Assembly (NCBI GenBank): GCA_964187785.1
Contig: OZ076409.1
Span: 41,418,001 to 41,482,000 of the forward strand
DNA length: 64,000 nucleotides
Source: Amphiscolops sp. MND2022
Lineage: Eukaryota
Direction of reading: 5' to 3'
In this document: positions 7,401 through 64,000 of the stretch, one piece after another
How the letters are laid out: each line of letters begins with the position of its first letter
How positions within the stretch are numbered: position 1 is the stretch's first letter
The notes under the pieces: model-generated
Database searches by the model: none
Told to the model about the DNA's origin: nothing
The model's input: only the letters and a program-made list of their open reading frames with translations
Position numbers and translations under genes: made by a program

Positions 7401-7710
7401 CCCACCCTCCCTCGAAATTTCAAAAAATAGTGGGGGAGCCCCGGTAGAAGAAACTACTGTTTCTAATGAAGAAACCCTAACCGAAAATGCAAGAAATGAA
7501 ATTGATGCGATTGATAGTCAACAAAATCTACAACCTAACCCTACTATTGATGCAGAACAATCCCCAGAAAATACAAATGAAAATCAAGTAACGACATTAT
7601 CAGAAGATAATGAGGAGGTTCAAAAAAACCTCTATCAATACACGTGGTAAAAAATACAATTTACGACCTAACCAAAATCCCAACTTCTCAGACTCATACA
7701 GATACTTTAG
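4403..7710 (+). pseudogene. pol: pol of element A (RT, partial RNase H, integrase; protease region and part of RNase H deleted)
   Basis: LLVEFH..ARHKFDIG, YVDD at ~5073, KCHFG, HPGI, LNCPEWDLGPED, ITD...ERTH, C-terminal YNLRP. Many stops and frameshifts. Relative to B it jumps from the gag stop to the RT start near 4430. Confidence 0.92.
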
Positions 7711-7863
7711 AAAACAAAAATAATCAAAATTCAACTCTCTAAATCTTCCTTCTTTTTATTCCTTGTGGAAATGAAAAACAGAATAAATACAACAAGGTAT
7801 AAATAGAAATACAAATAAAATTGAAACAACCAACCATGTGGGTAATTTTGGGGGGGAAGTTAT

Positions 7864-10800
7864 TCAATAAAGAACACTAGCTTTTCTCTTTTTCTTCGAG
7901 ATGGTTTTCACTGTAACCTCAGGAATAACAGGTGCTTCGGTTAATCGTCGGACGACTGGACTCATTGTGGGGGTTGAATCAGCTAATCCTAGTACACGTT
8001 TCACAGGAGTACCCTCGGTACTCGAACTATGTACAGCGGTTGGGCTAGTTGTTTCATCCATCACAATTCAAGACTTCTCTTTGATCCCTTCACTTTTGGC
8101 GTAATACCCCTTGAGTGAAGACAATAATGCAGTTTTAAGAAAGTGAGTCGAGGACATGATATTCCAAACAGAGAATTTCCTCTTGAGAATTAATCCAGGG
8201 CCTCGGTCAACCAGTTCAAACGCTCGTGGCAATGCAGCGAAATCCATAAATAGGCTCTCACACTTCTGAATTGATGACAGAGAGCACTGAAGACTCCTGA
8301 CACAGGAAGCAAATTCAAAATTGCTGGACTTCAACCCGGGGATTGACAAGGCAAACGACACGGGAACGGGGCAAGGTCCTCGTAAAGCTTGGCAGCATGT
8401 CTTGAAAAAGTGAAACAATTCAATCCGGCATTGGAGTTCATGATGACAGGAAAAAGTTCCAAGCCTGTCTTTAACTGTAGGGAAATTCTCACTACGAAGT
8501 TCGGTGATGAGTGAACAATATTCACTCACTAAAACGGGTTTCGTATGTGGGGCCATCCATTTCTGCTGAACAAAATACCCCGCAAGGTTCTGGATAGCGT
8601 CAGTGTAATCTGCCTCTCGTCCACTACGAACCACTGGTTCATAAAATGCGGAGAGCCCTCGCACGAAAGCAGATGTGGCCACTTTCGTCAGCAACAAATT
8701 GATAAAATGTTTGTAGAATGCAAAAAATTGGCCTACAAATTGTCGGGGAGTAGAAATCTTGGTCTTAGAAAGCAAATTAGAAAGGTCATGATCTTGAAGC
8801 ATGTCAAGAACAGTCTTGAAAGGCAGGGTAAAATCGTCCATGTTGAGGCTCATATTCTTGTCCCAGTCAGATATTGCCCCGAGAAAGGGACCCGGTAAGA
8901 TCTTTTGCAGCTGGGTGTATACAAAGACGCAATACTGATTGTAGAGCCGAAATCCGCCTGAGGTCGAACCAAAGACTTCACTGATGTCGAGTTGTTTAGA
9001 ACAAGAAAATAGTATTGGTTTTCAAAAAGCCATAGTAATAATATGGAGACAGTACGAAGAAAAGAAGAAACAACAATCAAGAAACAGAAAGGAACCGAAG
9101 AAACAGGATGTTGGGAAATTACTTACACACTGGCTAAGGATGTTTTTTGTAACAAACAAACGAGCAATGAAGACCTTGTCGCGCAATAACAAATCGTCCA
9201 TTCCAGAAGGCTGAAACAATTATTACAGGCAGAAAAATTACAGATACCCGTACAGTCAATGGACAAAGAACAACGCGAAACTGTTATAATACAATTGAAA
9301 TTGAATATGGAGTACAAACTTCTTGCATATGGGACCGGTATGTGGGATTCTTCTACTGCACTTCAAATGTTGTAGCACGTTGTCCCAGTTCGTGATCAAG
9401 TGGCCCATTACTTCAACAGCATGAGGCATATCGTAACCCAGATCAGTCACAGTCCAAAGTACAACAAACAAAGTGAATCAATGAAGAAACAGAGTTACAA
9501 GAGCACGTGCAATAAAAACAAAGATGTGAAAGAGCATGGAAAGAAGTCAATATGATGACTAATTATTCACGTGCAAAAATATGGAAACACTAGAATAGTA
9601 GTTCATGACTAATCATATTGCACAATGAGTCAAAATGTCGAGAAAAATAAATAAATTACCCAAATTTGCTGCATTATACCGCAAACCTTCACCAGTATAA
9701 AGAGAAGAAAGTGTCCATCTGAGATACGAAAAAGATGAAAACGCTGTAAATACAACGTATAAGGTCTCTGTTGAAAGAAAAAATCACTACAATCCCGAAA
9801 TCCCCTAGAATTCGTAAAATTTGTCTCCAATCGGGTAAGAAATATAAAACCCGGAAAAGTGGCCTGATAATGTTAAAATGGATCAAACAAAATATCATCA
9901 AAGTACCTTGATTAATCGAAAAAAAAATTAAAACAGTTGTGGGAGAAATAAAGAAACAATACTAACCTGTTTTGAAAATCTGGAAGTGATGACATCCAGG
10001 GGCTGTCACAAGCGGATTGAAGCCGCATTAGGAGGAAGTCGAGAAGGCTCCTGAAGTCAAATCGATCCCGGATGTGCACCGAAGGGACTAACAGTGTACG
10101 TTCCAGATCATCAGCGTCGATTTTAGGGAATGAACACACTCTCTTGCGCTGTGGTAACACTCGCGTCACGGTCTAAGTGATCCTGGGATCGAAGCCTGTG
10201 AGAAAGAGCAGGTGGGCATCTTTCTCAACTAGTGCGAAGAAGCCACTTAACAGGGAACGAAGAGAGCTGGGGGAGCATAATCTCCCTGGAAATACTCCGA
10301 TGCACAGTCCATACAGCGAGTTGTCTGCCCAGAAGTGCACAAAAAGTTGAGTTTCATCGCCATATTCTGTAATTCTGAGGGAGTAGCTTCCAGATCTCTC
10401 GATTGATATTATGCAGAATGACAACAACTCCCGGAACATGTAGGTTGAAAGTCCCTGAAGAAGAGGGAGACAAGTAATGAACCACGCAAGATGGACCTTA
10501 AACAACTCCCGTGATCAATAGCATGCAAATACTTACAAAGACTCGATGAAGCCGCCAGTCGTGCTGAATATTAGGCTCGGTCGTCTTCGTCTCCTTGACC
10601 AAATCATGCCAGAGTGCAATCATTGTTTCGAGCTGACCCCCCCCGTATGAGCCCAATCTTGAGCAAGTTCAATTGGGACAGCATGTCTTTACTGGGATCA
10701 TCAACTCCCCTGACCTCGGCTTGATCTTGCTGACCTATTCGTGAATAGTAGTCCCCAAGATTTGGTGCAACAGGATACTCCCGCTTTGTGCAGTCCTTGT

Positions 10801-12231
10801 CTTACTTTAGGGCCATCCCACTGAGTTCTTTGCGCTCTCTATCGATGAGGGGAAGCCCTGGAGTCTCCATCCTTATTCTGTGCTCCTTAACGAGGTGGCC
10901 ATCAGTACGATAATGGTGTAGTATCTCTATTGGACCTTTTGTCATCAGAGGACAGTTCCACTAAGCAGACCCGACATCTGTACTTGTGTGAGTACCTGGA
11001 TGCATCGGCAGGGGCAGTCGCGAAGAATTTTAAGATAGGGTATTTGTGATACATCCAACCTGCTAACACGTATCGTGGCTTGGCTCTTTTATAAGTGGCC
11101 ATGGTGGCTGGGGGCTGCTTCTTGCGTTTTGAAGTTTTGAGGTCTGGCGATTCCATTTCTTCAGCTGAAGAGAGACCTGATGAGGATTCAGAGTCAAAAC
11201 TAGAATCTGAGTCAGAAGAGCTTGTTTTCACCCTTGGCATCAGTCCCTTTAGTGGAAGCCTTGGTCTTCAGTGCCTTGCTGATTGCTTGTGGAGACTTCT
11301 TTTTGTTTGGGCTAGTTAAACCACTCAGTCCCACACTGTTGGTTACTCGAGAGAGGACGTTATCGCCCGCTTCCTCTGCAGCTTCCGTCAATATGCGCTC
11401 GAGTCTTGCTCGATGTCTCCGGGGCTAGTGGCGACGATGGGTGGTGATTCCGAGACGCTGGTTTTCTTCTTTTTCAAGGTAGGAGATGTGAATGAGTTGT
11501 CCCCCTGAACTGGAAAATTGGTCAAAAACTTCGTAAAAGGAGAGACTCTTTTACTAGCAGCAGTTGGTAGAGGAAATTTCTGAATTAAAGATTGGACTTG
11601 GTCTGAACGTGGTGAACAGGGAACGGCAGTACAAAAGAAGTACTTGATAAGAGACCCCCCACTGCGGCGTTGACAAGGGAGCTTACCTCTTGTTGAGCCC
11701 AATCGCCTGTGGTTGGAGTTTTTCCTGATTCAACAGTTTTATCATTTTCCACTGGGTCGACAAATTCGTTGAAATTGCCCAATATGAGGACTTGTGGAAA
11801 TAACTCTGGCGGGACATCATTTTCGTTTATCTGCGACTTTCGAGAACAATCACTTAATAGCAAAGATCGCTGGGTTACTGGGGCTTTATTGGCTTTGGGA
11901 GGATTAACAGCATTGCGTTTCAATTTAGCTGGGGAAGAATCTGAAACAAAATTCCTGAATTGCACTGATGTCGATAACAGAAAACAGTAACAGGAAACTA
12001 GTATTTCCGCTTGAAACTTGGGAACTGGAAAATGACAAATCGATAGATAGTCGACACTAAATGTGAGTTTGGCCAACTTGCATTTAAAATCTGTCAATCA
12101 GAAAAATCAACCAAATTCAAGCTTACCGCATGATGTAGCAGTTTTGGACGTCCTGCAATCAGCTGATCCTGATGACCTCTTTTTGGGGGGAGAGGCTTTC
12201 GCCGCGAGGAAGAAATCCGAGACCGAACCAT
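7864..12231 (-). pseudogene. Antisense multi-exon accessory gene of element A (BED-type Zn finger, hAT-transposase-like), decayed
   Basis: KFF...KYRCRVCLVELS plus frameshifted EILHHYRTDGH at ~10880-11040. Fragments 10173-10505, 9912-10169, 9256-9471, 9022-9219 and 8068-8853 are homologous to B exons. Intron 10536-10455, donor at 9966, acceptor at 9211. Confidence 0.8.
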
Positions 12232-13317
12232 CTCCAGGATAAGAAAGATCGTTGGAAGCAAATGAATGTTATTATGACGAAGAATTAAATATTCTGTCTA
12301 ATTAGAGTATCGAAATTTAAAGAAGTATCTATATTGGAACTAGCTAGAAAGTACGAAAATGAGCAAAACTGGAAATTTAAAAGTTTGGAAAGAGAGAGAA
12401 TTGACGAAATGACATAGATACTGACCACAACTGATACCATAAACAACCACACGATGCGACGTGGCTTACGGCTGAACATATTACTTTAACATATTTGCGC
12501 AAATACTGTGCGCTGATTGGTTGAAATAATTGGAACCGTTCTAACCTGCCAGGGAGATCGGTATTTAATAAAGCATAACTGAGTTCATTCACATATGCAT
12601 GCTGCGCCGCCGCCTAGTGTCAGTTCAAAGAAATGTGCAAAGTGAAACGTATCTTGCAGCACAACGTGAACTGGTATTGACCTAAAGGGAAAAAACATCT
12701 CATGACCTTATGCATCGCTACACTATTATGCAGATGACAGTGTATCATATAGTAGACATCATGATGCTGAAAAAAAAACAGAAGGGGTGAAAGTTGAAGG
12801 TAAAGGAGTATAAACTCAATCTTTCAAGAATCCCTATACCGTTTAAAGTACGTATTTGTACGGAACCTTTGTTTTCATAAACTCTTCCTTTCTGAATACC
12901 TTTAATTATTTGAATCAGAACTACATATTGAATCAAATTTCAAAAAATTTGCAAAACTCAAATAATAAAAGTTGAGTTGTCAAAATTCGTTATGCAAATT
13001 TTCATTCATATTTGTTTACAATCAAAATGTTATGCCTTTGTCATCTTAAATGGAAAGTTCACACATTTATTCACCAAATATGGGAATTGTGAAGACAAAT
13101 TTCATTCTGTTGTGGAGCTATTTGAATAAATTTGAAACATAATCTAACGCTTACCGCAAAATTACCGGGAAACGGGTAAACAAGAGAGGAAGATGACTCG
13201 ACAAGATATCTACCGTTTTCGGAAAACCCTGGAGCACAATCAAAGTGCGATGAAAAACAGAAGGAATTCATTCAAACAAAATTTTCTGAGGAAACTAGTT
13301 AAAACTTTGGAACCCAA

Positions 13318-14444
13318 ATGGGCAATAAAGCACCCAGAAGCTCTCACCGCTTTACTATCGACGAGGACATGCAGTCCATCTCTACAAACTCTGCCGGATT
13401 GATAAACATATCCAGTGACTCTGGGGAAGAATTTGTGACTGAACAACCCTGCTCGGAGCCTATAGATCAGAGATTCAGAGTTGGGGGGCCACTTAATAAC
13501 CCCATGACAGCCTTTGTCAACGAAGACGCCGCTAGATTGATCGCAATAAGCGAATCTAAAAAAAAAGAGAAGACTCCGCGATAGATATCACCGGCACTGA
13601 TATTGAAAAAGAAAGCCTTTGCAAGATCTTGGAACATACTGATTTACCTAATATCTCACCAGTTTCGTTCTTCGAATTGAGTGGAAGCGACAGTGGAGAT
13701 ATACTACTGAACGCTAATTTTGTTATTGTCCCGAGAAACAACTACGGTAGACCAGTGCTGACAGTTCCGCCCGTGCAAGCTGAAAGAATAACCAGGCAAA
13801 TACCTACCTGACTTGATGCTAATGTCAATAATCCTCCTAGTAACGTCCAAGTAAATGGACCAATCAGGCCTATACCTATTGCACCCTTGGTGATACCGCA
13901 TGAGATCCCTCAATCAAACTATGCTCATCCGTACAACAGGAAAGGAATACTGCAGACACCCAGGGCAGACCAGTACAATGTGCCGGGTGCTCAATTGAAT
14001 TTACCAAACTTAGTCACCCAAGTTATGGGACAATACCCATATGACATAAACACCGGGATTAAAAAGCAAACGCACATCCTAATCTCGCATATTACTATAA
14101 CGCCAACGGCCAGTAACCCAAGGCACCCATAGCAATTTAGAGGTGACTGGCGGAGGCGCTGTCCGAAGTGACAACGCTGCAGAGCAACAAAAGATCCCCT
14201 TATGAAGACAGCTTAGCCCTCCAGTTATGCAACATGTTCAGGGGAATTGTCACTGGTGCGGTAGAACCTACGATGAAGTTGCCTTGGATGCAATATCGGC
14301 CTACGCGGCAGCAACTGAATACCCGACGAGAAAATAAGAGACAGGAACATTAGATCGCGGGCTTACTTAGATGGGTTCAAAGCAGCACCCATTTGCAACG
14401 AAAATGCTGGCCTGACACAGCCTAAGTTTGTGTCGGGACCGTAG
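13318..14444 (+). pseudogene. ORF3 of element A (SIM-like motif, CxxCG), decayed, ends inside the 3' LTR
   Basis: LINISSDSGEE near the N terminus. At ~14245-14444: GNCHWCGRTYDEVALDAISAY, then (frameshift) RSRAYLDGFKAA...AGLTQPK, homologous to B ORF3. Confidence 0.7.
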
Positions 14445-15848
14445 TGCAGCAATGATGGCAAATGTCTCCCCACCTACAGCAAACTAGGGAAAACTCATCA
14501 CTCCTTTTGTATGAAATTATGTACAACTTTTGGATATCAGCATTGTTGGAATTTTTTACCATTACAGTTAATAATAGTTGCTAGGTAATAGTTGCTAGGT
14601 AATGTAAAATACAAGTGATTGATATATTTCTTACGTAATACCACTTTACATGAAATTCCATGAATTGAATAAATTATTCATGACTCGTAGGGCGCATTAA
14701 CACGTACGGACTTCGGTATTTGGATTAATCTGCTGTACTAAGTTTGAAGTATACTACAGTACAATCTCGCATTTTCAACATTTTAATTACGTCATTTAGA
14801 AGTATGACTCATCACGTCGACTTAATCATATGTGCTGTAATGTGTTGGAGTTAATACTTGTACTAGAAATGAGTCATACTACTTGTTGCTATAGTGATGA
14901 CCAATCAAAAAGCAGGAAAATATTCGTCATGCAGGAATCTATTTATAGCAGTGATGTAACATGCAAACCTATTTTTATATTACATTGGGTGCTAGTTTTA
15001 GTCATTACATAAGTATGATGTAACCATGACATTCCGAAAAATTGGTTGTCATAATACTAAAATTAGCCCAAATAAAATGGAGAGTTGAAAGACCATAAAA
15101 ATAATTCATTCAACAAAAAAACTTTCAGACCGATCGGACCTTCTTTTCATTTTCTCAATCTTCTTTCTAACCTCGATAATCTAGCATTATGTACATTTTC
15201 TTCGACTTTTTTTCAACTCTGTTGTACTTTACTTATCATTCTGATTGAAATTCTTCTCTCCAAAACAATATTTTAACCTGACTAATATGGGAAAAAAAGA
15301 AACAGAAGATCTAGACGAGCACAATCACCCTCACTTAAGAGAGTTGAATACGTCTGAAATAGAAACATCACAATGAAATGAAACTGTTATTGAAACTTTG
15401 AGTAATTTGATAAATGTTAGTTCAGTTAGGGACGAAGAAGCAGTTTTAGACAGTGGAACACAGAATTAAAATCAAATGCAAAATTGGACTCAAAGAATAT
15501 CTGATAAGACGAATAAAGAAGTAGCAAACGTAAGGAAAGAAATGAATGAGAAGCTAGAGAAAATGCTGAAAGACATGAAAAATAGCAGAAGAACACAATC
15601 CGTACCAAGCAGGAGATATCATGGGCGAAACACACTCCGAGTAGGAACCTCAAAAAACATAGATAACGAAGATGATGAAAAAAACGCATCTGAGCCAGAA
15701 AATCAAGAAAGCGAAATACAGGATAATTCTTTCAGGCCATCTAATATGAATAAACTTAGAACGCCAATGCAACCTTTGATTAAACAAAACATCGATTTAA
15801 ATGACTCTGTGGTCATATATGAGGACCGCACAGGAGAGGATTATCACA
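14413..15848 (+). repeat. 3' LTR of element A
   Basis: Starts tgacacag, ends gattatcaca, followed by TSD aagga. Confidence 0.93.
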
Positions 15849-47619: not shown

Positions 47620-49251
47620 TGTCGCAGGCTCCCGCCTGCGATGGGAACTTTTACACCATCAATTACAGCTGTTTTCGCGCCCTCCCAGGTACTCTACCAA
47701 TAAACTAGAGGAAAGGACCATGTGTCCCATTGTCATGACGGGACAAAAACTTCAAACTGAATTTGTAATATTTTTACGGCATGTCTATTATTCTATTTTC
47801 AGTTTTGACAGCCTTATATATAAAATCTTGTGCAAATTATTAATCGGAAATACCATTTGGTTAGTTGAAAACTACGAAGTTGATTTTGATACATTGATGC
47901 ATGTAAACACTGTATGTTTAATGTATTAGCTAAGAAATTGGACACCAAGGCGTACAGGAAAGGAAACGAGTTCAAATGTTTCCTCTCCTGTCTCGCTGGA
48001 CACGCAGTCCGTCCAAATTCTTAGCCAATCAGAACACGCCATTCATTTCATTCACTGTGCGCAGTATTCTAAATTAAAGGACTCTAAGGCCACGCGCCGT
48101 CAGCTAGTAGTAATTTGCTGCCTATTTACGGCAAACGGACACTGAGTCCAAATTAAAGTAAAGTGCAATTTACAGTGGTAAATAAAGGCTATGATTGGTG
48201 TTTCTAATAAATACTCGTTTTGATGAAGATTACTGGACCATTTGTACCATTTGATGCTAGATATTAATAATTTACATGAATACTCAGATTAATGAGTTGG
48301 TACATGTAAGTTATGGTTGATCAAATGTAATTGCATGTAATGTTGCTTAACCTCACATATGAAAGGCCTTGAGGGATGCTTGGACCTACAATCCTTCTAT
48401 ATATGGAATTGTTGAAGGCGCTTGAATAAATCACCCCTTTGAAGTGACCCTTTCGTCATGCCGCCTTCATGGCTATAAATAGTAGGTGCTATTTTTAGAT
48501 AGCTGTGAAGGCTATTTTTAGAACGTGACCCTCATTATTTTGCAAGTCATGTAAACCTGAGTATATATACCGTGGACCCTAGGTCCCAAGGACTTTTTTC
48601 AATTTCCTTGATACCGTAATACTCAAACTTGTTAAAATCGTTTCAACATACTCTGTTTGCAAGCCTGAGAACTTAATTTAAATTCTTACCTCTTGCAATA
48701 AACTCTTATGCCTTCCACAAGAAGACAGAAAGCGAAAGCTAGAAAATCCAAAGAGATGGACATGTTGTCCGATATGGATAATTTAGACGTGATGATAGGG
48801 AGTGAAAATCCTTTAGAAAGAGAGTTAGCAGATGTAATAGACCAATCTTCCATTAATGGTGACATAGAAATTGGTAGTCACTCAAGAAATGATCTTGGAA
48901 ATTTCATTCAAGGAAATGAGCCTCATGGTCGAAACGACATAAGACAATCCTTTGAAACCTTTTCAAATGAATTTAATCTTAGGTTATCTCAAGAGATGGA
49001 TTCCATGATGGCCATGGTACATAGTCAGATAAATAGAGCAATCAGTACCGCCATATCAGAGAAGGTGTTACCGGAGATTCAGAATATTGTGAGTTCAATG
49101 TCTTCCTCTGGGAACAGGGACACTGAGATGAGTATGTCTCCTAGTAGTCAGGAAAATAGGGAAAATCCATCTGGCTTGAAAACAAAATTATTGAAAAAGG
49201 ATTCACGGTCCGTTGGTGATTTGAGAGACACCACGGGACGTGGCTCTTACA
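47620..49251 (+). repeat. 5' LTR of element B
   Basis: tgtcgcagg...ctcttaca. Candidate TATA box tataaa at 48474. Contains the gag ATG at 48708. Confidence 0.97.
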
Positions 49252-49265
49252 TGGTGACAGGAGCT
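49252..49265 (+). promoter_or_regulatory. Primer-binding site TGGTGACAGGAGCT
   Basis: Immediately follows the LTR CA and is identical to the element A PBS. Confidence 0.85.
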
Positions 49266-50380
49266 AACGAAGCCCAGCAGCCTATACCTGAATTTCTCAC
49301 TGGACGAATCCACTCAATCCCGAACCTAGAGAGACAGCAATCTAACCACAATTTCTCTTTGGACACCACTCTGCCAGCGCCAGAACCAGAGGTCACAGAG
49401 CCACCTCAGGACCCGCTCAATAGATTGGCTGATGTACTAGTCAATTTGCAAAACAAACCCCAAACGATGACTATCCGGCCTGTCCAAACAACCCCTATGA
49501 CGTTTGACGGAAAGAGTGAGAAATTCGAACTCTTTGAAGATTTGTTCCACACAATGATCAAAATGCAACCGGCCATGACAGAGCAAATGAAAATTAACCA
49601 TTTCCATTCACTGCTCAGGAAAGGAGCCTTGCAGACCTTCAGGAACATAAACTCAATCAACCGCCAAACACTCGAGGACGTGCTGATCATATTCCGGAGA
49701 AAATATGTCAAACCGGAATCCCAAGCAACGGCAAAACACAAATGGCATCGGCTGACTTTCGATCCGAATACCATGAAACTGCCGGATTTCTTAGAAGAAC
49801 TGAACCAGGGGGCAGAAAAAGCTTTCGGTGAGAATGCAAAAAGCATGATTGACAGCTTATTGTATGCAAAACTGCCTCCAAAATTAAAACGATCTGTCAA
49901 TATGGCCCGCCTGGAGAACGGGACATAAGAGGAAATCGTCGCTCATCTTGAAAGAGAGCTTGAACTCAACGCATTAGAAGAGTCAGACGATTTGCCAATC
50001 GCCACAATGGCCTCTGCGTCCACCAGTAACAACAATCTGCTCTCTAATGGCATAAATACTAATAAGGACGCACAATGCTCTTATTGTAAAGCCACAGGCC
50101 ACTTTTATAAGAGCTGCCCCAAATTGAAAAAGAAGAAAGAATTGGAGGACAAAAATGGCAAAAAGCCCCAACGTCCCACATACCCAGAATGTCCTACTTG
50201 CGGAAAGAAAAATCACCCCGTTGAAAGATGCTGGAAAGGGGCTGGAGCACATCTACGTCCCAAAAGGACAAGACCCGAAGATAAAGCCGATGAAAACTCC
50301 GGCGATGAAAAGTTGTCTAAAAAATCAACTAACCCCGAAACTGCATCTTCGAGCCAATCAAACCCACGAAAAACGGACTC

Positions 50381-50387
50381 AAAAAAC
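50381..50387 (+). promoter_or_regulatory. -1 ribosomal frameshift slippery site A AAA AAC
   Basis: X XXY YYZ heptamer in the gag frame just before TAA. The -1 frame is open from 50387 into pol. Confidence 0.8.
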
Positions 50388-53300
50388 TAATTTCGCCACG
50401 ACTCCAAATATGTAACAAGATGTCAGTACGACAGTACGTCATATCTGACCCTGCAAACATTACATATAAACAAACTCAAAACGACACCACAGGGATGCCA
50501 TCGACTGTCTGGCAGCAGCAGATGGCCGACGCCCGCAGAGAAACTCAATATATCATCCACAGTGATCATCCATACTTATATCGACGGAACAGTAACCGCA
50601 ACGACTTGGAAACTCACTTTCGCCCTTTAAAAACTGTCGAAGATTATAACCCTCAATACTATGACCCCGAGTATGGCAAAGACCCATACTGGGACGACGA
50701 ACTATATGACAAAACAAATTTACAATTTCGAAACGAAGATTACCCTCCAACTGACGACGAGGATGACCCAGACATCGAAGACAACACACTGTCTCGGGCC
50801 CTCATTGATCTTTGGCAGCCGAACTTTGAGGCAAATATACAAGAAGTAGACGCCATACACACACAGGAGGACCATAAGGCTCCTAATAGTCTGTTAGATG
50901 AGACAGCCTTCTTACACCTCCTAGTGACCAAAGAAGGAGAATTACCATACGTTCCCCTTTCAACAAACCTTGGACTTAAATTCAAACGACGAATGCTCTA
51001 TTTCCCAATGGACTTTGGGGAATTAACTCTAGATGGCCTGATAGATACTGGAGCCCACTCCAGTGCAATCCCGGAGGCAGACCTCAGGAAAATACGCCTG
51101 TTGGCCCCTCAATCCATTGTAAAAGAAGGTCCCGCCCCATCCTTCCAAATAATGGTCGCAAATGGAGACTTAGAAACCCCAAAAAGCACAGTCGAACTAA
51201 AATTCGAAGTGGGCGACATAGAATTTCACGAAATTTTCATTGTAATGGAAAAACTGTCAAGCCCCATAATTGGACTAATATTCCTTCAAAGGAACCACAC
51301 TGTCCTGGACATGCGCCAAGGTATACTCAACTTTCCCTACTTCTCGATGCAACTCAAGACGGCTGACCATAAATACTCAAATGTTTTGGAACCCATCCTC
51401 AATCCTGAGGATGTCACAATTCCGCCCAATGACCATGTGGTCATACCCATTCAATCACAAATTTACGCAGAAAATGCAGTTACGGGCATATTGCAACCTA
51501 GCGATCTTCTGCACGAGGAAGGCGACATAACCTTCTGTGCCGCCATAGTCACACTACATGAAGGGGCTACGAGAATACACGTCAACAATTTCACTGATCA
51601 ACCCTACAAAATAAAGAAAGGGATGCACATTGCAAACTTTTCAGTGATGACCCCTGAACAGATGAAACACGTCAGGCCAATAGACCCAGTGTCCACCTGG
51701 CACTTACTGAATGAAAATGAAGACGACGCTATTTATTATATTAGTAGCCTTCTTAAAGCTAACAGAAATAATGACCAATACGAACAATATTGGTTCCCGA
51801 CGCCTGAAAACCCAGGGGACGAAACGACCCACACCCCAATACAACAAAGAATTCTCAAAGAATTACAAGATCTGCAAAGTTTAGAACAACTCAACCCGCA
51901 CGACGATGCGGAATCTCGTCGAAAATTCCTCAGTAATTTTGATTGGAAGGATTCAATGTTACAACAACATGGAATCAGACAAATAGAAACTCTATTAGTG
52001 GAATTCCATGACATCTTTGCGCGCCATAGATTTGACATTGGTGTCAATGAGGAATTTACGGTCAAACTGACCCCAAAAGACGAATCACCTGCCTACAGTC
52101 AGAGCCTACCTACACCAGTCAACCTCAAAGAGGACATATTGGTCGAACTGGCGTTACTTCATAAATATGGTATTATAACGACATTACCATTCTCAAAGTA
52201 TGCCAGTCCCATCTTCGCGCAGAAAAAGCCCAATGGGAAATTGAGACTGTTGGTTGATTTGAGGAAAATAAATAATCTCATCTCAGACGATTATATCAAC
52301 AACAATCACCCAGTCAGTACCCTGACGGATGCGGCGCAACATATGGCAAGCAAAAAGCTCTTTTGCAAACTTGACTGTTCTCAAGCTTATCATTGCCTTC
52401 CTATGGCAGACCAGAAGTCGATTGAAATGCTAGCATTTAACTTCGCCAGCAGGACATTTGCATATAGAAGATTAGCCCAAGGACTCAGTAGAGCCCTGTC
52501 GGCCTTCTCCAGTTTCATGAGGGAATACTTGGATCGTGTCATAAAAGCAGACCAATGTGCTCAATATGTGGACGATATTGGTGTTGCGGCGACAGACGCC
52601 GACCAGCTTATCGTCAACTTAAGAGCAACTTTCCAATGTATCAGAGAAGCAGGATTGAAATTGTCCATGCACAAGTGCCATTTCGGCGCTACTGAAATTG
52701 ACTTTCTTGGGAGAACCATTACACCTGAAGGCGTAAAACCCCAAAAAGAAAGAATCACTAACTTCTTGGAAAAGACGAAATTCCCAAAGTCCAAGAAGGC
52801 CTTACAACGCTACCTTGGTTTCCTCAATTACTACAGGAATTATATTCCAAGGCTATCCGAAAAACTAGTTCCCTTCTTCCAATTGCTCAAAAAGGATGAA
52901 AATGTACTAGTTACGCAAGAGCTAGTTGAACAATTTAATGAGATCAACCGCGATTTAGACCGATGTAGTCAATTGGCGTTGAAACAACCTCTGCCGAACA
53001 AACAACTGCTCCTTATGACTGACGCGAGTTTTACAGCAGCCGGTTACGCCATATTAACCGAAGACGACCCAAATCAAAAATACACTTCTGTTAAAAAGTC
53101 CTATGCGCCGATTGCATATGGATCCAAGACTTTCACGCCTTCTCAGCTCAAAATGTCGATATATGCAAAGGAATTCCTAGCTATATATTATGCATTTAAG
53201 GAGTTTGGACATATCTTCTGGGGAACACCTCAACCCGTGATTATCCTCACAGATAACAAATCGGTCACAAGGTTCTTCCAAACAAAGATAATTCCACCGC

Positions 53301-55494
53301 CTCTCTGGAATGCTTGTGATTTTGTCATTCAATTCAACTTCATTATAGCTCATATTCCAGGCAAAAACAATACAGCGGCAGACTACTTGTCCCGTATGGA
53401 AATGGACCCTAGTGAAAAGTTAGTCCTGAAAATACGTGAAGACGTCGAGACCCGACCGATTGAGGTCAATGTTCAATCAGCGGGAGTATCTGAAGAAGAA
53501 CAAGTCTTCTTTACCGACACAGACGACGAAACAGAGCAACAGATTTGGGAACGGAAACAACAATCCAAAAGGGGCCTCATAGTCCCTGAGGCAGTAATCC
53601 AAATTGACGCTATATCAGAAAATACCGTCGAAGAGATTACTAACTTCACACAGAAATTAAGAAGAACAAATCAGATACTGCTTGAACAATCCAAAGACCC
53701 GATTCTCCTCCAATTGAGGGCGAAACTGCAAAATGAAGAATATTCTGAAGAAATCCTTCAACGGGATATTCGGTACAAGTATTACTTGAACAACATAGAC
53801 AGAATAGTCCTCAAAGACGAAATAGTGACGAGACAGTACTATGATGAAACCGGACAAGTCAAATATCATCAAATCTTATTGCCAAAGCATTTACTCAAAG
53901 AATTATTACAAGCAATACATGGCACAGCACATCGACACCCGGGCATTTCTAAAATGCTACAGGAAATTCGTCAAAAGTATTACTACCCAGGAATAGCAAA
54001 ACACGTCAAAAAATGGGTAGAAGGCTGCGAAACATGTGCTAAGGACAAAAGGGTCCCCAACACAGTTTTCACCCCAGAATTACTGAATTTACCTGAATGG
54101 GACCTAGGCCCAGAAGATGCCATGCAAATTGATTTATTGCCAAATTTACCAACTAGCGGCGGATACCAAACGGTGATGACGGCAATAGATGTATTTTCAA
54201 GATATTTATTCGCCTACCCGCTAATTGAGGCAACAGCCGCAAACGTAGCCAAGGTGATAATTGACATCATGACGAAACATTCGTATTTGCCAACAACACT
54301 CATCACGGACAAGGGATCTGCATTCACATCAAAAATTCTAGAAGAAATTACTGCAATACTGGGGATCACATTGAAGTGTGCCACTACTAAACATCCGCAA
54401 ACTATTGGTAAACTTGAAAGTACACATGCCTCTTTAAAAACCAACCTAAAGATAGCCTCAGGAGAATACCGTCGTCAATGGCACAAATATTTACCACTAG
54501 CTGTGCTTAACTATAACACTACTTATCACGCTAGTATTGGATTGGTTGTGAGCCTAGCAAAGTCTTTCATGGACGAATTCCCTACAACGTCTTGGATCAC
54601 AAATTAGGAAATAATCCTAACAAAAATTTCCTACCGACGACTGAATTCGCGGAAGAATTGCAGCAGAGGACGCAGATCCTCATTGATCAAACCAAAAAGA
54701 ATATTATGCAGTCGTATTTAAAGTACAAAGAGTACAACGACCGCAAGGCCAAAGCGGCTCCGCTACAAGAGAAAGACTACTGTTTCGTTCTCCAACCGAA
54801 GGCGGATAGCCAAGGATCTAAAATACCATTCAGGGACTTCCGATGGATTGGTCCTTTTGTTGTTCAAAAAACTCTACCAATTTACAATTATATAGTGCGT
54901 CGTTTAAATACGAATAAAACGCAAATCTTGCACCGGATCAGGCTCAAAAAATTTGTTCCAAATGCCCCATTAGAGGACAAATACGAAGAGAAGAAATTAC
55001 AGCCCGATGAAGAAATAGTAATACCACAAGATGATTTGTATACCATCTCATGGGAGGCGGACTTTGAGTACGAGCTATTCGAGCCGAAGACAAATGATTG
55101 GCCACACACGGCCACGCGTCTACTACAGGACGCCGCGAACGGAGAAATCGACTATTACGTCACCGAGAATGAAAGCAGCAGCGTAAACGAAAGTGAACGC
55201 AGCAGCGGGAGAATGAATGACGATGACGTCAACGAGAATGAAGTACGGCCACGATCGGCCAGCAGCCGTGACGCGTCGTCCCCTCCGAGCGAATCGCCTA
55301 GTAGGACGCAAAATGAAAATGACGTCACAAATGATTTAGAGAATACGGAAATTGCTTCAAAAGGAGGCGTAGATATTGCCGTGCCCGGAATATCGGAAAA
55401 TGGAAAAGATGAAGAAACTTCTAGCCCTAGAGGAGGGAAATATAATCTTCGACCTAACCCCACCCCCAACTTTACTGATGAATACAGATACTAG
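50387..55494 (+). CDS. pol: pol of element B (protease, dUTPase-like domain, RT, RNase H, integrase with GPY/F), frameshifted at 54536-54545
   Basis: LIDTGA; LRLLVDLR, LDCSQAYH, YVDD; LMTDAS, AKEFLA, LTDN; H..HPG...CETC, IDLL, ITDKG, KLES; RWIGPF; YNLRP. A duplicated attgg shifts the frame in the integrase C-terminal part. Confidence 0.97.
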
Positions 55495-55712
55495 TCAGAT
55501 AAGTAAATTAAAGTCCCATAAGTCTCTTGGACTAAATTAATATTTTTGCCGGGACTACTCTGACTATGAACTCAAATCTGGAAATAACAGAATAAATTTA
55601 CAAACATGCAAAGAAGTCTACAGGAACTGCAACCTCTAATGAAATAAAAGTAAATCAAAGTTCATAATAAATACAAAGAAACAAATAGAACACAAATGTA
55701 CTCTATGTACAT

Positions 55713-58700
55713 TTAAGATTTAGAGGAGGATTGCGCAGCATTGCGTGACCCGGAGTCTTCTTTCACTGGCTCGGCATTCTCAAAGGCTACTTTGCACTTC
55801 ACTTTTCCAGGGGATTTCCTTCGCTTACTATGAGTAACTGGGGAAGTAGACCCAGAGGCAGAACGACTGGAAGATGGAGACTTCGACTTCTGCGTTAATG
55901 CCTTATGCTTTTGACAAAGAATCTTGTAAAAATCAGCTCGACCGAAGACATCAACGTGCGTCCAGGGATCTCCGGCCACATTCCCAGTATGAAACTCCTG
56001 CTCAATTTCTCGAAGTTTATTGAGAGAGTCATCCTTCGTGCAGACAGAAACGGCATCTGGTGCTCGAGCTAAGTAAGATTGGGCTGGCAGTAGAACGTCG
56101 GCTAACTTACATTAAGGCCTTTGGGCATCGACATCATGGAACCGAATGGGTGGGAGCAAAGGAGTGTTTTCAGTAAGGCACATACAGCTCAATTGGAAAA
56201 GGCGATAGAGGTGCACCCGGTTACGAAGTTCAGGCATCACTGACAGGAAGTCGACCATGTCAGAAAATCCATTTGGGGAATCTTTTAAAGCCTCATAACT
56301 TTGACGAAAATGCCCAACAAACTCCAAATATTCGTCACGGCAGTCGTTCTCAGATGACCCTTCCATCCAGCCTCGCAGACTGAAACTTTGATATAAGGCC
56401 GCAAAGCAGAAACTGGCTTGCTCTGTGGGAAGGCAAAGGAGGACATTCGGATCAAAGCTCGCCATTCCGACTACGAGATTGGAATTCAAGCTGACATGAC
56501 CCAGGAAGTTCTGAAGGAGGGTAACAAGATAACTCCTAGCCTTTGCGACAAACTTCTCCTTCACTGCTTCAACTTGTTCGGACAAATTAGGAATGGGCCC
56601 CTCTCGGTCGCTGTTGTCACGTCGTACCTTAGCTGTGCTAGCTGCGTCTAAATCTTGCTTCAATCGCAGTCTAGTGAGGAAATCTCTGGAGGATAGTTGG
56701 CGGAGCTCAGCAGTGCGAAGCACTGGTAATTGAGTCCAATCAGTTTCTTTAGGCGAATGTTTGGGCAACAAAGCCCGGTAACAGAGCTTTCTGACGAAGT
56801 TGTTTAGTTGCCCGAAAGTAAAGAAACCAGAGTCTCTGTGCCCAGCCAGACTTCGTTCAAAGCAAACGTTGTCTAAACAGTAATTTCAATAATGGAGTCG
56901 GAGCTGACAGAAACTTACCCCGAATAGGAACTTAGGGAATCCTTGGCCTTCAAAACAAAATGGACGAAACGGAGATACTTACAATCATATATGATCCGTC
57001 CATAGAATTCGAGCTTGACCAAGAAGAAGTCGTCACAAATGATCTGCCACTCCAGGCTTTGAGGCTAAAAGAACAAGCGTCCCTGACAACATCTGGTCTA
57101 ACCCCCCTACAAAAGTTGAGCAAAGCCCAAACCAAACACTGAAATACGTTCAGACCTTGTTTTTAACTCCGATCATCTCATAGCTGGGCGCAATTTGAGT
57201 AATGTGGTCCAGGAAGGCTGACCAGTTCTTGATAATCTCCGAACAAATAGTGGGGATAGATCGGAGGCGCAAATCATTACTGCTAATGGCCTAAAAACAA
57301 CTTCATGATGCAAGGACGAAATCACAACAACCCGGTAAATGAAAACGGGGTCTTACCTTAGAAAGCTCAGGCGCTGCGGCCATCCAAGGCTCATCAAGGC
57401 TCTGAGACAAATAGGCCAACAAGTATTTAAGCTGGGTGTGGAAGTTGATGCGTCCAAATACACTTCCTTCCCGCTTGTGCATGAGCCTGTGTATCGACGT
57501 GACTTGGTATCGAAAGGGGTACTCGATACTTTTCTTCATCAACCCCGACTGTTCCACAGTCCGGAGAACGTCAGAGGTACAACCAGACATACAAACTATC
57601 TGTGGGGCGGTGGACAGCAAGGACAAGAGTCGGGCTATAACAAGCAGCTGATTGCGATCTGGATCAGAAGCCAAACTATATTGCATCAATTGGAGCTTCA
57701 CGAGAAATCCCGACTTCCAGTAACGTAGTGAAGCTATCTCCATGCCTCCCTGTGGCTCAAATTCAATTGAATATTGTCCAAAATCGTTGACAGACTGGGC
57801 CACGTCCTCCATGCCACGCAAGAAAATGTGATGGAAGATAGCCTGAAATAGTTAATCCTACATGAGAATTCGCTAACCCAAGATCAAACAACAGAGCCCC
57901 CCTTCTCTTACCCTATACAAAAGATGAGAACGAATATAACACGTACCGTAAGCGTGATGGAGCTCCAATCCAGATCTCCGAACAACTCCTGGTGGTTGGT
58001 GAAATTGCCCACTTCGGACCAGAGCCCCTGCAGAAGGGTAATATCGCCCGAGTAAGGGACAAGTCGTCCAATCAGTGAAATTTGGGTCCAAGTCGGACAT
58101 CGTCGGGACTTGCTAAACCCCCAGCGCTTGCCATGTACTCGTCGTAGAAAGGGTAACGTGGGCCAATATCTACGAGTGGTGCAGTTTCAAACAAGGGCTT
58201 TTCCTTCTGGAGTTCGAAGGCAGTTAAGACGTGTCCGTCCTTCCCCCTGACAGCGTGAACAGTAGTGCCTGTGATCTTGTCGAGTTTGCCCAGGTGTTCA
58301 TATCGCCAGCGCTGATCCTTCCTCAAATGACTCTCATTTTGGTAATGGCGGACGATTTCACGTGCCCCTTTGGAGAAGATGGACACGTTGGTCTTACAAA
58401 TTTGACAATAAAATTTGTACTTGTTGTGCACGGGGTCAAGTGGGCCAGTAACAAACACTTTGGTCCATTGGATGCCTTTAAAATACGCGGGCTTCATCAC
58501 CTTCCCCGGTCGGCTCATTAACTTGCGTCTCTTCCGTGGGGGACTTCGATTACCTGGCTGATGAGAAACCTGAGGTCCAAGCGTGCTCAGAGGTTCGTAA
58601 TCGCCCTCGCTATATCCTGGACTGGGGATGACGGACTTCCCTAGGGTTACCTCGCGTTCCGCGGTACTTGTGCTGGGATGCATTCCAGCGATGGGCGTAT

Positions 58701-59723
58701 TAGGTCCAGAATCGGTTTCCAGACTAGTGACAGTTCCTCCTATCTCTTCATCAGTAGAGTAAGCCCCGCTAGTGTTGCCATCAGTAGTGTAGCCCTCTCC
58801 ATCTGACTCTCCTCCCGAGCTATTAGCCGTACTTGTGTCCGGGATACTCCCACGGATCAGAGCTTTCCGCAGCTGGCTGGCACTCTGTCCCTTCCCCCCG
58901 TGAATAGCTTGCAGAACTAGTGAGCGCATAGAGTGCAAAGATGACTTGACTGTTTCGTCAGAAATAGTCTTCAAAACAGCATGAATCTGTGGCTCACTAA
59001 ATGCCACCGTTGTGTGCCCCCTGGGGAGCTCAATGGGTGTATTTTGAGTGAAATACTTGCGGAGCATAAGCCTCCCGTTGGCAGACAATTCTGTAGGGAG
59101 TGTAGGTTCTTTGTGACCGGTTGTTGTCAGAGGCCTACTTAAACTTTCTGATGTAATTTTTTGAGCTTCGCTTGGGTCAGCAAGAAGTTCGGGCCCCACA
59201 ATGCTAGAGGTGGGCCTATCGGTCAATCCGTCCTCCCCTGCACTGTCAAGGATGTCCTCTATTTCACTGGCGGAAGTTTCAAAGTAATTTCGTTGGGGTT
59301 CTTCAGGCAAATCAAAAGCATTTGAATCAAACAACCGTGAGGATCCTTCCCTTCGGCATCGGCCCTTCTGGTTTTAGGTTGTTTGGCAATAACGGCCTCA
59401 GATTCAGAAGCTTTATCCATGCTAGGTCCTGAACATTTTTGTGGGGAGCCATCGTGAACAGTTGCCAAGAACGTTATATCCAGGCTAGGATCAAGGCTGG
59501 CCATAGTTCGCAAAGTTTGGCTTGCGAAAGTAGTCATACTCTCTTCAGTGTTTCCACTACTTGAGGAAAAGTTAGAAGGTGGTCGAACATCAAGGTGTAA
59601 TCCCGCGCTGTCTCCTTCGGCTAATTGGCGCTGCTCGCTGGGCGGTTGATCCATCAGGCTTTGAGTGGTTACGGCAGGGGAAGTAGTTTGGGTCTCCTGT
59701 GTTCCAACAGGATGTTCAGACAT
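55713..59723 (-). CDS. Antisense five-exon accessory gene of element B (~1,200 aa; BED-type Zn finger plus hAT-transposase-like body; lesioned copy)
   Basis: Exons 59723-57947, 57842-57357, 57290-57156, 57064-56983 and 56872-55713, joined by GT-AG introns of 104, 66, 91 and 110 nt with compatible phases (0,0,0,1). Motif W..VF...FYCQICK...IVRHYQNESH. Lesions: frameshifts near 59340 and 58087, TAA at 56112-56114. Confidence 0.85.
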
Positions 59724-60436
59724 CGTGTCTAAACAAAAAGAAATAAAATCAAGCGGGAACCTTCCTGAATATGAGTCCATTACCGCGCTAAAAATCTTCC
59801 GGAAGTAGATTGATATGAACACAAGTGAATGCTTGAGTTACTGGACAGGAAGTATGTGAACGAAATGAGAGTCTTGATCAAACCTCAAATTAGTTCAAAT
59901 TTTCTCAAGAAAATTAAACGAAACCTAGAACCTACTGACCTGTTAAATTGTGACTGCTGGAAGGATCGTGAATTGGATCTGCCATGGGACTCGATGGAGC
60001 ACGTCAAGGGATAATTTCTTCAAGGTGGCAAACTGGAGCTAGTTGAGAGTGGTTGGAGGGAGCCTGAAGGTCGACTGTCCGTTGATACCCGGAGAATCTA
60101 TGGGGATGTGGATGAATGGACACTGAGTCCTGGGATGAAGACGAGAAGTAATTAAATGAAAAATACAATAAAATGACTCAAAGACTAAAGGACTGACTAA
60201 GTACTGATGATTAAATACTGGATAATACGAGAAGTGGATAATACAATTGAATGGTAAAGAATTGGAAGAAGAATTAGAAATGTGACAAGATGTCAAGATT
60301 GGAGTTCGTGGCTATACAGTTTGGTGTCCAACTTACAAGTATTTACGATTTATGGAGATATGTGGATAAAGTCTGCCAGCGATATCTACCTTTTCCATTA
60401 ATTTCGAAAACTTTGTTATTTACAAAATTATTCCAT

Positions 60437-60478
60437 GATTTTATTTTATTTTATTTTATTTTATTTTATTCTATTTTC
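60437..60478. repeat. (ATTTT)n microsatellite
   Basis: attttattttattttattttattttattttattctatttt. Confidence 0.9.
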
Positions 60479-60974
60479 AAGGTCATTTTATATCATTCCT
60501 TATACGGGTTCGCGACCTTGAGAAGCCATGTTAGCTTGGGAGAAATTTTGCTGCTTTCTTATTGGCTGAGCATATCGATGGTGGACGACGTGGCTGACCG
60601 TCATATCTTCACCCACTTGAAATCCTCAAGTATCTGATGAGTGTTAATAAACACTCGAGACCGCGCTCTTAAGTTAGAAGTGTTAACTTAGTTGTTGATA
60701 GATAGTTAAGGCGGCGCCGACAATTACAAAGCAACTCTGCGGCTTGATGAAAGAATTCAAAAGGGAAGAATTTTGTTGTCGAGAAGTTATTACTTGGAGA
60801 GGTAGCGGAACCCCGGGAAAAACGAAACGAAGAGACTCACGGACTGTCGGAAATAAATCCGCCATTCCTCTCAGTTTCATTCTTGAATTCAGCCGTCCTC
60901 TTCAAACATTTCTGAATTGAAAACCACTAAATTCCTTCAAGATAGCGAAAAAAATATTCAAAAAAAGATTCGAT

Positions 60975-61814
60975 ATGAATAGCCTTGTCTCGCCTTTGTA
61001 TGACTCCGAACCCGAAAGGACCTATCCGGAGGACTTCCAAGGAGCTGCCCCAGGAGATGGGATCATTTACATTTCAAGCGACGAAGAGGAGACAATGGAA
61101 TGCAGGAGCGTTTCCTCGATAACCGATTTCTTGTCCTCCTCGGAGGATGAGTCGGAAGAAGTTGCTCAGATGGCCTTATGCGTCGAAACACAGATGTCCG
61201 AGCCCATAGCAATTCCCTACACCTCTTCTTCTGCCGCGAATCAGGCAAACGAACACAGAAGGCCAAACTTGCCTCCGTTTCCTAAGTTCGACCAGACTTA
61301 CTTTAGCCTGGGGAGAGGCAATGGGCCCCTAAGGGCAGACAGTAGAATTAAGCGGAACCACCCGATAAACTTGTGCCGCAATCTTGTCCCGATGGTCGAT
61401 ACGCCACTATCCCCACCAGATGCAGACAGAGGACAATACTGCCCTCAACCGACATCGAGTGGGTCTTACGTATCAGATGCCCCGACGATTGATTCTATGG
61501 CCAATCATTTTAATGACTTGGAGATCGGGGTGTCTACAGCTGAATCGACCTATTCGGACTGTGTGATCTGTGGTAAATCAACACATCAAATACGCGAGGA
61601 AGCTGCAGATGATTACATCAGCTAGACGGTCGCAGTGGGAGAAACGCTAGCGGAGACGCAAGCAAGAAAGAGAGCAATTCTAGACGGGATGACAGCCGGA
61701 ACTTTTCTTCTCATGCCAGGGGGAGTGTCGCAGGCTCCCGCCTGCGATGGGAACTTTTACACCATCAATTACAGCTGTTTTCGCGCCCTCCCAGGTACTC
61801 TACCAATAAACTAG
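60975..61814 (+). CDS. ORF3 of element B (unknown function; internal TAG at 61623-61625; reads through the PPT into the 3' LTR)
   Basis: The 216-aa ORF continues in frame after TAG as TVAVGETLAETQARKRAILDGMTAGTFLLMPGGVSQAPACDG...PIN*, homologous to A ORF3. Confidence 0.75.
61718..61725 (+). promoter_or_regulatory. Polypurine tract AGGGGGAG
   Basis: Directly precedes the TG of the 3' LTR. Confidence 0.8.
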
Positions 61815-63357
61815 AGGAAAGGACCATGTGTCCCATTGTCATGACGGGACAAAAACTTCAAACTGAATTTGTAATATTTTTACGGCATGTCTATTATTCT
61901 ATTTTCAGTTTTGACAGCCTTATATATAAAATCTTGTGCAAATTATTAATCGGAAATACCATTTGGTTAGTTGAAAACTACGAAGTTGATTTTGATACAT
62001 TGATGCATGTAAACACTGTATGTTTAATGTATTAGCTAAGAAATTGGACACCAAGGCGTACAGGAAAGGAAACGAGTTCAAATGTTTCCTCTCCTGTCTC
62101 GCTGGACACGCAGTCCGTCCAAATTCTTAGCCAATCAGAACACGCCATTCATTTCATTCACTGTGCGCAGTATTCTAAATTAAAGGACTCTAAGGCCACG
62201 CGCCGTCAGCTAGTAGTAATTTGCTGCCTATTTACGGCAAACGGACACTGAGTCCAAATTAAAGTAAAGTGCAATTTACAGTGGTAAATAAAGGCTATGA
62301 TTGGTGTTTCTAATAAATACTCGTTTTGATGAAGATTACTGGACCATTTGTACCATTTGATGCTAGATATTAATAATTTACATGAATACTCAGATTAATG
62401 AGTTGGTACATGTAAGTTATGGTTGATCAAATGTAATTGCATGTAATGTTGCTTAACCTCACATATGAAAGGCCTTGAGGGATGCTTGGACCTACAATCC
62501 TTCTATATATGGAATTGTTGAAGGCGCTTGAATAAATCACCCCTTTGAAGTGACCCTTTCGTCATGCCGCCTTCATGGCTATAAATAGTAGGTGCTATTT
62601 TTAGATAGCTGTGAAGGCTATTTTTAGAACGTGACCCTCATTATTTTGCAAGTCATGTAAACCTGAGTATATATACCGTGGACCCTAGGTCCCAAGGACT
62701 TTTTTCAATTTCCTTGATACCGTAATACTCAAACTTGTTAAAATCGTTTCAACATACTCTGTTTGCAAGCCTGAGAACTTAATTTAAATTCTTACCTCTT
62801 GCAATAAACTCTTATGCCTTCCACAAGAAGACAGAAAGCGAAAGCTAGAAAATCCAAAGAGATGGACATGTTGTCCGATATGGATAATTTAGACGTGATG
62901 ATAGGGAGTGAAAATCCTTTAGAAAGAGAGTTAGCAGATGTAATAGACCAATCTTCCATTAATGGTGACATAGAAATTGGTAGTCACTCAAGAAATGATC
63001 TTGGAAATTTCATTCAAGGAAATGAGCCTCATGGTCGAAACGACATAAGACAATCCTTTGAAACCTTTTCAAATGAATTTAATCTTAGGTTATCTCAAGA
63101 GATGGATTCCATGATGGCCATGGTACATAGTCAGATAAATAGAGCAATCAGTACCGCCATATCAGAGAAGGTGTTACCGGAGATTCAGAATATTGTGAGT
63201 TCAATGTCTTCCTCTGGGAACAGGGACACTGAGATGAGTATGTCTCCTAGTAGTCAGGAAAATAGGGAAAATCCATCTGGCTTGAAAACAAAATTATTGA
63301 AAAAGGATTCACGGTCCGTTGGTGATTTGAGAGACACCACGGGACGTGGCTCTTACA
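61726..63357 (+). repeat. 3' LTR of element B
   Basis: Same length (1632 bp) as the 5' LTR at constant offset 14106, with no difference seen by eye. Confidence 0.97.
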
Positions 63358-64000
63358 CTTACCACGACTCTACTTGCCCTCTCGTTGTCCCTCGAGAAGC
63401 TCTTAACCTCAGCGATGACTTTCTATTCCCAACTGACATCCTCACTAACTATACCTTTTTCGCAAACTCAATGAACTAGTTGATTCTCTTTCTGACGATC
63501 ACGCACGCTCTTTTTATACTACTCTCGTTCACAAACATTAATCAAAAGCCCAGTTGAACATCATTATCACGAAACTCTCCTCAATACAAATTGAAATTTT
63601 CCGCCAAAATCAACATTCCTGAAGAAATTAACAACGCTCTACCTAAACTACACCCTTCTCAATCTGCTTGAACTGAAAGTTTCCCAAACCTCACTTCAAC
63701 CTCAAACTTTTTCATTCAAACTCCTAGTCCTTCTGCATAAGTTCTCCGAACCGTAAATTCTAATGTCTGTGTAAATGCATTTTCATGCCCTACCGACAAA
63801 CGTAGAAGCGTGTCGTACACTCTAAATCTCCTTCAAATCCACCGAAATGACATCATAAGCGTACAGTTTCAACACTACACAATATTGTCTTCTTGAAGAA
63901 GCTCACTCTGCTCGAAACTCCTTCTTTTGCTAAATCCTCAAAAATTCTATCAACTATCCTTTTCTTCAATTTTCCTTCATCTCAATATACACAAGACCTC

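Follow-up and report, generated by a model that had tools for sequence, protein, structure and literature searches.

The 64,000-nucleotide stretch of the Amphiscolops sp. MND2022 genome analyzed here (assembly GCA_964187785.1, contig OZ076409.1, positions 41,418,001 to 41,482,000; "the window" in the following) contains two retrotransposons of the Ty3/gypsy type that have long terminal repeats (LTRs), a complete element B and an older element A, whose reverse transcriptases (RTs) are 74-76% identical. Both carry a large gene in antisense orientation, and this gene, a real, unusual, and well-supported feature, is our subject. Its carrier B has TG...CA LTRs, a 5-bp target site duplication (TSD), a primer binding site (PBS) and a polypurine tract (PPT), and the domain order protease, RT, RNase H, integrase, with a dUTPase domain between protease and RT (pol residues 358-440; Pfam). 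Gag starts within the 5' LTR in both elements (B: 48708-49251, ~540 bp inside; A: 2981-3290), so every 3' LTR also holds the gag N-terminus. A preliminary description of the window had called these elements giant, but at 15.7 kb for B (internal region ~12.5 kb) and 14.0 kb for A they fall below the 20-kb internal-length bar given in the text of PMC6431247.

As the preliminary description had proposed, the antisense gene of B is built from five coding exons in consistent phases (Table 1); their borders are GT-AG. All 13 peptides quoted in that description for B and A are present where it had placed them (YNVCFE spans the exon 4/5 junction), and the same is true of its BED-like finger. All eight GT/AG borders are kept in five of the six other B-type copies fetched whole (L041-L045), which are stop-free and encode 1191-1213 amino acids (aa); in the sixth, L046, the exon-2 donor has moved and the 3' end is broken. 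Across B-type copies, introns vary in sequence and length, whereas exons do not. The window copy itself is broken by single-base frameshifts near 59351 and 58089 and by a stop in exon 5, and gag, pol, and open reading frame (ORF) X are damaged as well despite identical LTRs. Lesions in all genes alongside identical LTRs are best explained if this copy was made recently from an already decayed donor that was mobilized in trans. The antisense gene is dispensable in cis.

Table 1. Features of elements B and A and of the antisense gene (window coordinates)
Feature	Position	Strand	Description
Element B	47620..63357	+	Complete Ty3/gypsy LTR retrotransposon, 15,738 bp; TSD CTTAC at 47615-47619 / 63358-63362
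5' LTR of B	47620..49251	+	TG...CA, 1632 bp, 100% identity with 3' LTR
PBS of B	49252-49265		Directly after 5' LTR, inside gag frame
gag of B	48708..50390	+	Stop at 49926-49928 in window copy; uninterrupted in L088
pol of B	50333..55494	+	Protease, dUTPase, RT, RNase H, integrase (Pfam); frame break ~54540-54600 in window copy
Left junction block	55400..55567	+	pol end and hairpin-like stretch; conserved even where the cassettes of the elements differ
Exon 5	55713..56872	-	All-alpha region, basic Ser-rich tail; stop 56112-56114 in window copy
Exon 4	56983..57064	-	82 nt, equal length in A-type
Exon 3	57156..57290	-	135 nt, equal length in A-type; conserved Trp of IIKNW / LITNW
Exon 2	57357..57842	-	486 nt; predicted RNase H-like core without second catalytic Asp
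Exon 1	57947..59728	-	ATG 59723; two frameshifts in window copy
Exon 1 content		-	~390-aa Ser/Thr/Pro/acidic low-complexity region, PPRKRRK basic patch (58542), finger, helical linker
Finger Cx2C-x16-H-x5-H	58467-58327	-	Within exon 1
Leader intron	59729..59939	-	Conserved, with GGAA-core boxes as conserved non-coding motifs inside; the leader exon lies upstream of 59940
Right junction block	60110..60500	.	87-93% identical between elements with differing flanking modules
ORF X	60975..61814	+	~280 aa, CxxC near end, reads through PPT into 3' LTR; stop near 61623 in window copy
3' LTR of B	61726..63357	+	PPT directly upstream
Element A	1832..15848	+	Older copy; LTRs 1832-3290 and 14413-15848, 92% identical; TSD AAGGA
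A-type antisense gene	7870..12232	-	Decayed; exon 1 ~11983-10628, exon 2 ~10445-9969, exon 5 ~8982-7870; two acceptors mutated

Conservation, splicing, and copies of the antisense gene

The A-type gene matches that of B in its phases and in the lengths of exons 3 and 4 (exon 2 has 487 nt in the one lesioned copy measured), and their exon-5 proteins share 19-21% identity, which bears out the earlier view of an old conserved module rather than a random insertion. Among 18 diverse copies, 16 keep the acceptor of exon 5. One of the other two, L051 (G000:C2:52390607), lacks exactly the last intron, its genomic sequence being the predicted spliced junction; similar 418-aa frames occur among the A exon 5 matches, and this exact loss marks one subfamily. 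A spliced antisense RNA would thus once have been reverse-transcribed and recombined into an element, and together with the conserved splice sites this loss suggests that the antisense gene is spliced. An intron precedes the ATG in all five elements examined; because an in-frame coding leader exon exists in only two of them, we treat the leader as non-coding. Within this intron (59760-59885), a TGATCA palindrome and three GGAA-core boxes recur in 6/6 other B-type copies, with small changes in L046, and are candidate promoter or binding sites.

Searches of the 1.07-Gb assembly that contains the window, whose match counts are lower bounds, returned at least 150 scored matches to the B finger exon (best 150 of 7719 candidates; 68-100% identity), at least 125 to A exon 5 (125 of 4088), and at least 150 to the A finger exon (best 150 of 6479), many of them in long open frames. 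In the one pair with a measurable synonymous distance, 763 codons give a ratio of nonsynonymous to synonymous substitution rates (dN/dS) of 0.064, and the N-terminal region gives 0.18. These values lie far from the 1 that the preliminary description had named as evidence against function, and the gene is present in other copies. Synonymous sites are saturated in 230 of 231 exon-5 pairs from 22 copies, including pairs with 68-82% identical proteins. The gene lies tail-to-tail with integrase in five of five very divergent A-type copies and in L031-L040. These sequence comparisons support the conclusion that the antisense gene is under purifying selection and belongs to the retrotransposon. That it is instead a nested DNA transposon or neutral passenger, as the broken window copies might suggest, is largely refuted by a position and orientation fixed across lineages only 20% identical, by intact frames in many copies, by saturated synonymous sites alongside low dN, and by the want of terminal inverted repeats (TIRs) or an 8-bp TSD. 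As the preliminary description had noted, no TIR pair was found at the cassette borders in A or B, and these borders are the shared junction blocks.

When 1.84 billion representatives were searched with a profile, 794 clusters were obtained, of which the best 150 were all exon-sized fragments; the ten of these that we looked up are unnamed assembly proteins. The protein search found no full-length relatives (680-2000 aa), and none were found in viral or metagenome contigs, so the range seen is this genome or close kin. The copy L088 (G000:C2:52331570-52351009) forms a head-to-tail array with a 9.5-kb period in which the exon 1 frame is open and, judged by unit length, most of pol is apparently missing.

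Predicted fold and the question of a hAT origin

The model of exon 2 has the topology alpha-b1-b2-b3-alpha-b4-alpha and supports an RNase H-like/DDE-type core without a complete catalytic triad; a lead from ESM Atlas to an M16 peptidase for the same exon was rejected in favor of this explicit model. The finger (Cx2C...H-x5-H) and an upstream aromatic residue are invariant across A and B types and form the most conserved region of the gene, the exon 3 Trp is common to both types, and exon 5 is predicted to be all-helical without a fold match.

That the catalytic motifs are lost, as the preliminary description had stated, agrees with the model as far as positions assigned by strand register can tell. 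Across a 98-sequence alignment there is no acid at the end of b4, where strand register rather than residue-level superposition places the second catalytic Asp; the CxxH motif that should follow is replaced by YPFR[FY][DEQ], and the exon-5 stretch aligned to ERSFS has no conserved Glu. A complete DDE triad as in hAT transposases is therefore lacking at the positions given by strand register. Strand b1 does commonly have Glu at positions 27 (78%) and 29 (51%), both mapping near the first catalytic Asp, which could hint that an altered active site still supports nuclease or strand-transfer activity. However, A-type copies have Arg at position 27, and with the b4 acid, CxxH, conserved Glu, and TIRs all missing, we consider such activity very improbable.

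The origin of this scaffold was attributed to a hAT transposase in the preliminary description, a claim that holds up only in part. In its favor, Hermes gives the longest structural cover among DDE enzymes, with an alignment that takes in the helix before b1, and for exon 5 a lead from ESM Atlas points to Dimer_Tnp_hAT in 25 of 30 matches at 0.91. Several searches weigh against it. Pfam gave no hAT, BED, or TRP28 (PF04195) match for the exon ORFs, 18 alignment members, and 57 of 150 representatives, so that the zf-BED and Dimer_Tnp_hAT matches proposed as a check did not appear; PF05699 in particular matched none of the 18 + 57 exon-5 proteins. HHalign and hmmsearch comparisons with the hATs of this genome and a ZMYM/THAP12-type set did not rise above shuffled controls, and HHalign placed the Dimer_Tnp_hAT lead within the shuffled range; the best local scores against the hAT sets were 24.8, where shuffles reached 25.5, and 18.1, where they reached 16.9 (E 0.33). 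Fold searches with the low-confidence exon-5 model (PDB, VIA wide, BFVD) likewise gave no meaningful match. The profile comparison left out ZNF862-like proteins, which we take to be the closest hAT subfamily. Profiles of exon 5, exon 2, and the finger found nothing significant among PDB sequences, and the DUF4371 profile matched nowhere in the genome. Long-ORF hAT transposases of Ac-like and ZMYM/THAP12-like types (L067-L073) also exist in this genome, none of them close to the antisense gene.

Another RNase H-like source (a further DDE superfamily, e.g., Mutator, P, or Kolobok; a ZBED/ZMYM-like gene domesticated by the host; or an RNase H-like fold from outside the transposases) would make the hAT likeness superficial and still be compatible with DNA binding. 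We regard such an origin as unlikely, given the ESM Atlas lead, the Hermes alignment across the helix before b1, an exon 5 that aligns to the hAT C-terminal third in the expected register, though not significantly, and a succession of domains that matches the hAT layout described in the text of PMC4763223, with the finger first, then a helical linker, the RNase H core, an all-alpha region containing a conserved Trp, and C-terminal helices. A hAT as the specific donor is thus partly supported. The antisense gene is not itself a member of the hAT transposons, as it has neither the triad nor CxxH nor TIRs.

Module exchange and possible functions

Elements with RTs 98-99% identical to that of B adjoin cassettes far from B's. 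Ten elements sampled from the best 150 RT matches, chosen for having no neighbor among the accessory-gene matches listed, all carry exon 5 at the expected place, with 47-54% identity to the B type and in five distinct types; overall, at least seven deeply diverged cassette types sit on backbones with 98-100% identical RTs. The L043 element is 98-100% identical to B over 60600-63200 and 99% in RT, yet only 49-70% identical in nucleotides over 55600-60000, and the L042 element has a cassette with 94% protein identity to that of L043 but a different ORF X and LTR. As these mosaics are accompanied by a rise in sequence identity at the two junction blocks (Table 1), three modules, i.e., gag-pol, the antisense cassette, and ORF X-LTR, have been recombined between elements, probably by template switching between RNAs packaged together. 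For one pair, a joint movement of cassette and LTR was tested and rejected. The right junction block is a likely promoter region. Directly after the pol stop, most B-type elements (L041-L046, L074-L083) have a hairpin-like block (55492-55567; outer arms GTCAG/CTGAC and GTCCC/GGGAC) that marks the left swap point and was not seen in two A-type copies folded.

ORF X is a second accessory gene, conserved and in sense orientation by sequence, with homologues 49-52% identical in L086/L087 and no Pfam family matched; it was also studied across L084-L087, and A has a decayed look-alike, found by eye, near 13300-14450. Elsewhere in the window lie a 566-aa ORF with a weak Viral_helicase1 match (21186-22886; E 6e-4), followed by three near-identical tandem copies of a 2355-bp unit (23424-30492), and a minus-strand fragment with Pol_BBD and gag_pre-integrase matches (35753-36574), probably of a copia-type element, downstream of which a strongly C-skewed region is the insertion site of B.

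The reading that we prefer, a transposase-derived gene (most likely hAT) whose product acts as a DNA-binding activator or anti-silencing factor, has in our estimate an even chance of being right. An intron-containing cut-and-paste transposase gene, most likely hAT, would have inserted as DNA, reversed, into a gypsy ancestor at a place between its pol and 3' LTR; such an arrival seems required because an intron-bearing gene cannot enter an LTR element via sense mRNA, and the introns would survive in reverse orientation because the reverse-transcribed genomic RNA is the other strand. The captured gene would have lost its TIRs and catalytic residues, kept the C2H2 finger, RNase H-like scaffold, and helical region, and gained or retained the long acidic Ser/Thr/Pro region and basic patches. 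Transcription and splicing would start from an internal promoter near 59940-60500, expression that we infer because splice sites are conserved and one intron was exactly lost. The protein, most likely nuclear, would bind element DNA through its finger and dead DDE scaffold, with the acidic low-complexity region recruiting activators or blocking silencing, and would act in trans as activator or anti-silencing factor by analogy with TnpA and VANC of plant DNA transposons. In a strict cognate form this scheme is at odds with a cassette that can change while the LTR stays and with a finger that is the most conserved region, so its target is probably a motif common to families or inside the cassette. 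More tentatively, the retrotransposon may have domesticated a hAT transposase as a spliced antisense transcription or anti-silencing factor and keep a library of diverged versions swapped between near-identical elements.

Two other functions bear on the same data. A protein of the same origin could serve as integration or packaging cofactor, anchoring the pre-integration complex at selected chromatin or DNA motifs, or binding element cDNA or RNA, in keeping with a DNA-binding-type finger beside an integrase-like RNase H scaffold, a cassette that adjoins pol in every element checked, and the existence of tandem and clustered insertions. We think this unlikely, since near-identical pol paired with cassettes only 47-68% identical fits poorly with a tight integrase-partner interface and an N-terminus that is long, disordered, and acidic is more often seen in transcription factors. 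An exclusion or counter-defense factor, with cassette types shielding the carrier from competing elements or a host silencing or restriction protein and an arms race keeping many types, would account for the diverged types on near-identical backbones and for an accessory protein that diverges far faster than RT (~20% vs 74-76% identity between A and B). However, the only pair that could be measured has a low rather than a high dN/dS, and old lineages with a recent recombinational sweep of one pol would give the same pattern, which leaves this explanation rather improbable.

Relation to known elements and significance

Antisense accessory genes are known from Retand/Tat-lineage plant gypsy elements, which carry TRP28 ORFs between pol and the 3' LTR, and the text of PMC11963269 treats the origin and function of such genes as open questions. 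Like TRP28 as presented there, the gene described here is conserved, antisense, in the same interval, found in nearly all copies, and predicted to bind DNA. It is not a TRP28 family member, however, as it has no PF04195 match, encodes ~1200 aa, is apparently spliced, and has a recognizable DDE-type fold, while TRP28 is described as having no known relative outside its elements and introns go unmentioned in that paper's text. TnpA of Spm is derived from a transposase, transposases themselves activate cognate copies, and dead transposases recurrently become regulators (10.64898/2026.08.24.746577); VANC of VANDAL is a regulator encoded by a plant DNA transposon (PMC5735166), according to the text of both sources. 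The likeness to these element-encoded accessory regulators is at best one of analogy: they serve DNA transposons of their own class, whereas here a class II-type protein would sit on a class I element, and the words "retrotransposon" and "LTR" do not appear in the main text of the TnpA preprint.

Hermes and Kat1, as far as described in the text of PMC4763223, and hAT proteins of ZBED/ZMYM1/THAP12-like type that became domesticated resemble our gene in an N-terminal C2H2 finger, an RNase H-like core, and, as a candidate in our gene, a helical insertion with Trp, in similar order. Our gene differs in having no complete DDE, CxxH, TIRs, or profile-level match, and its domesticator would be a retrotransposon, not the host. 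Rotifer LTR elements (PMC5408684) and planarian Burro (PMC6431247) are likewise gypsy-like elements of invertebrates that, in the accounts given there, have a dUTPase placed between protease and RT and carry extra genes that can be exchanged, but these extras are env, GDSL, DEDDy, BIR, BCL2, and similar, Burro exceeds 30 kb compared to 15.7 kb for B, and the words "transposase" and "intron" do not occur in the main text of the rotifer paper. Our literature search found no LTR retrotransposon with a spliced DDE-transposase-derived gene, although subscription journals, Repbase reports, and supplements lay outside it and could hold one.

Antisense accessory genes and captured extra genes are thus known, and what appears new is a spliced gene with a DDE-type scaffold that is exchanged as a module. 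Since its origin can be traced to a predicted DDE-type transposase scaffold and hundreds of copies exist, under selection, the gene allows direct testing of whether retrotransposons bring along anti-silencing or targeting factors of their own. The exchange of cassettes while the pol/LTR backbone stays constant amounts to a natural experiment on what the protein recognizes. On the more tentative reading of a domesticated hAT transposase kept in swapped versions, a class I element would make use of a class II regulator, with specificity or counter-defense cassettes that can be exchanged. If the protein is a regulator, the route by which a dead transposase becomes a regulator would extend from hosts and DNA transposons to retroelements.
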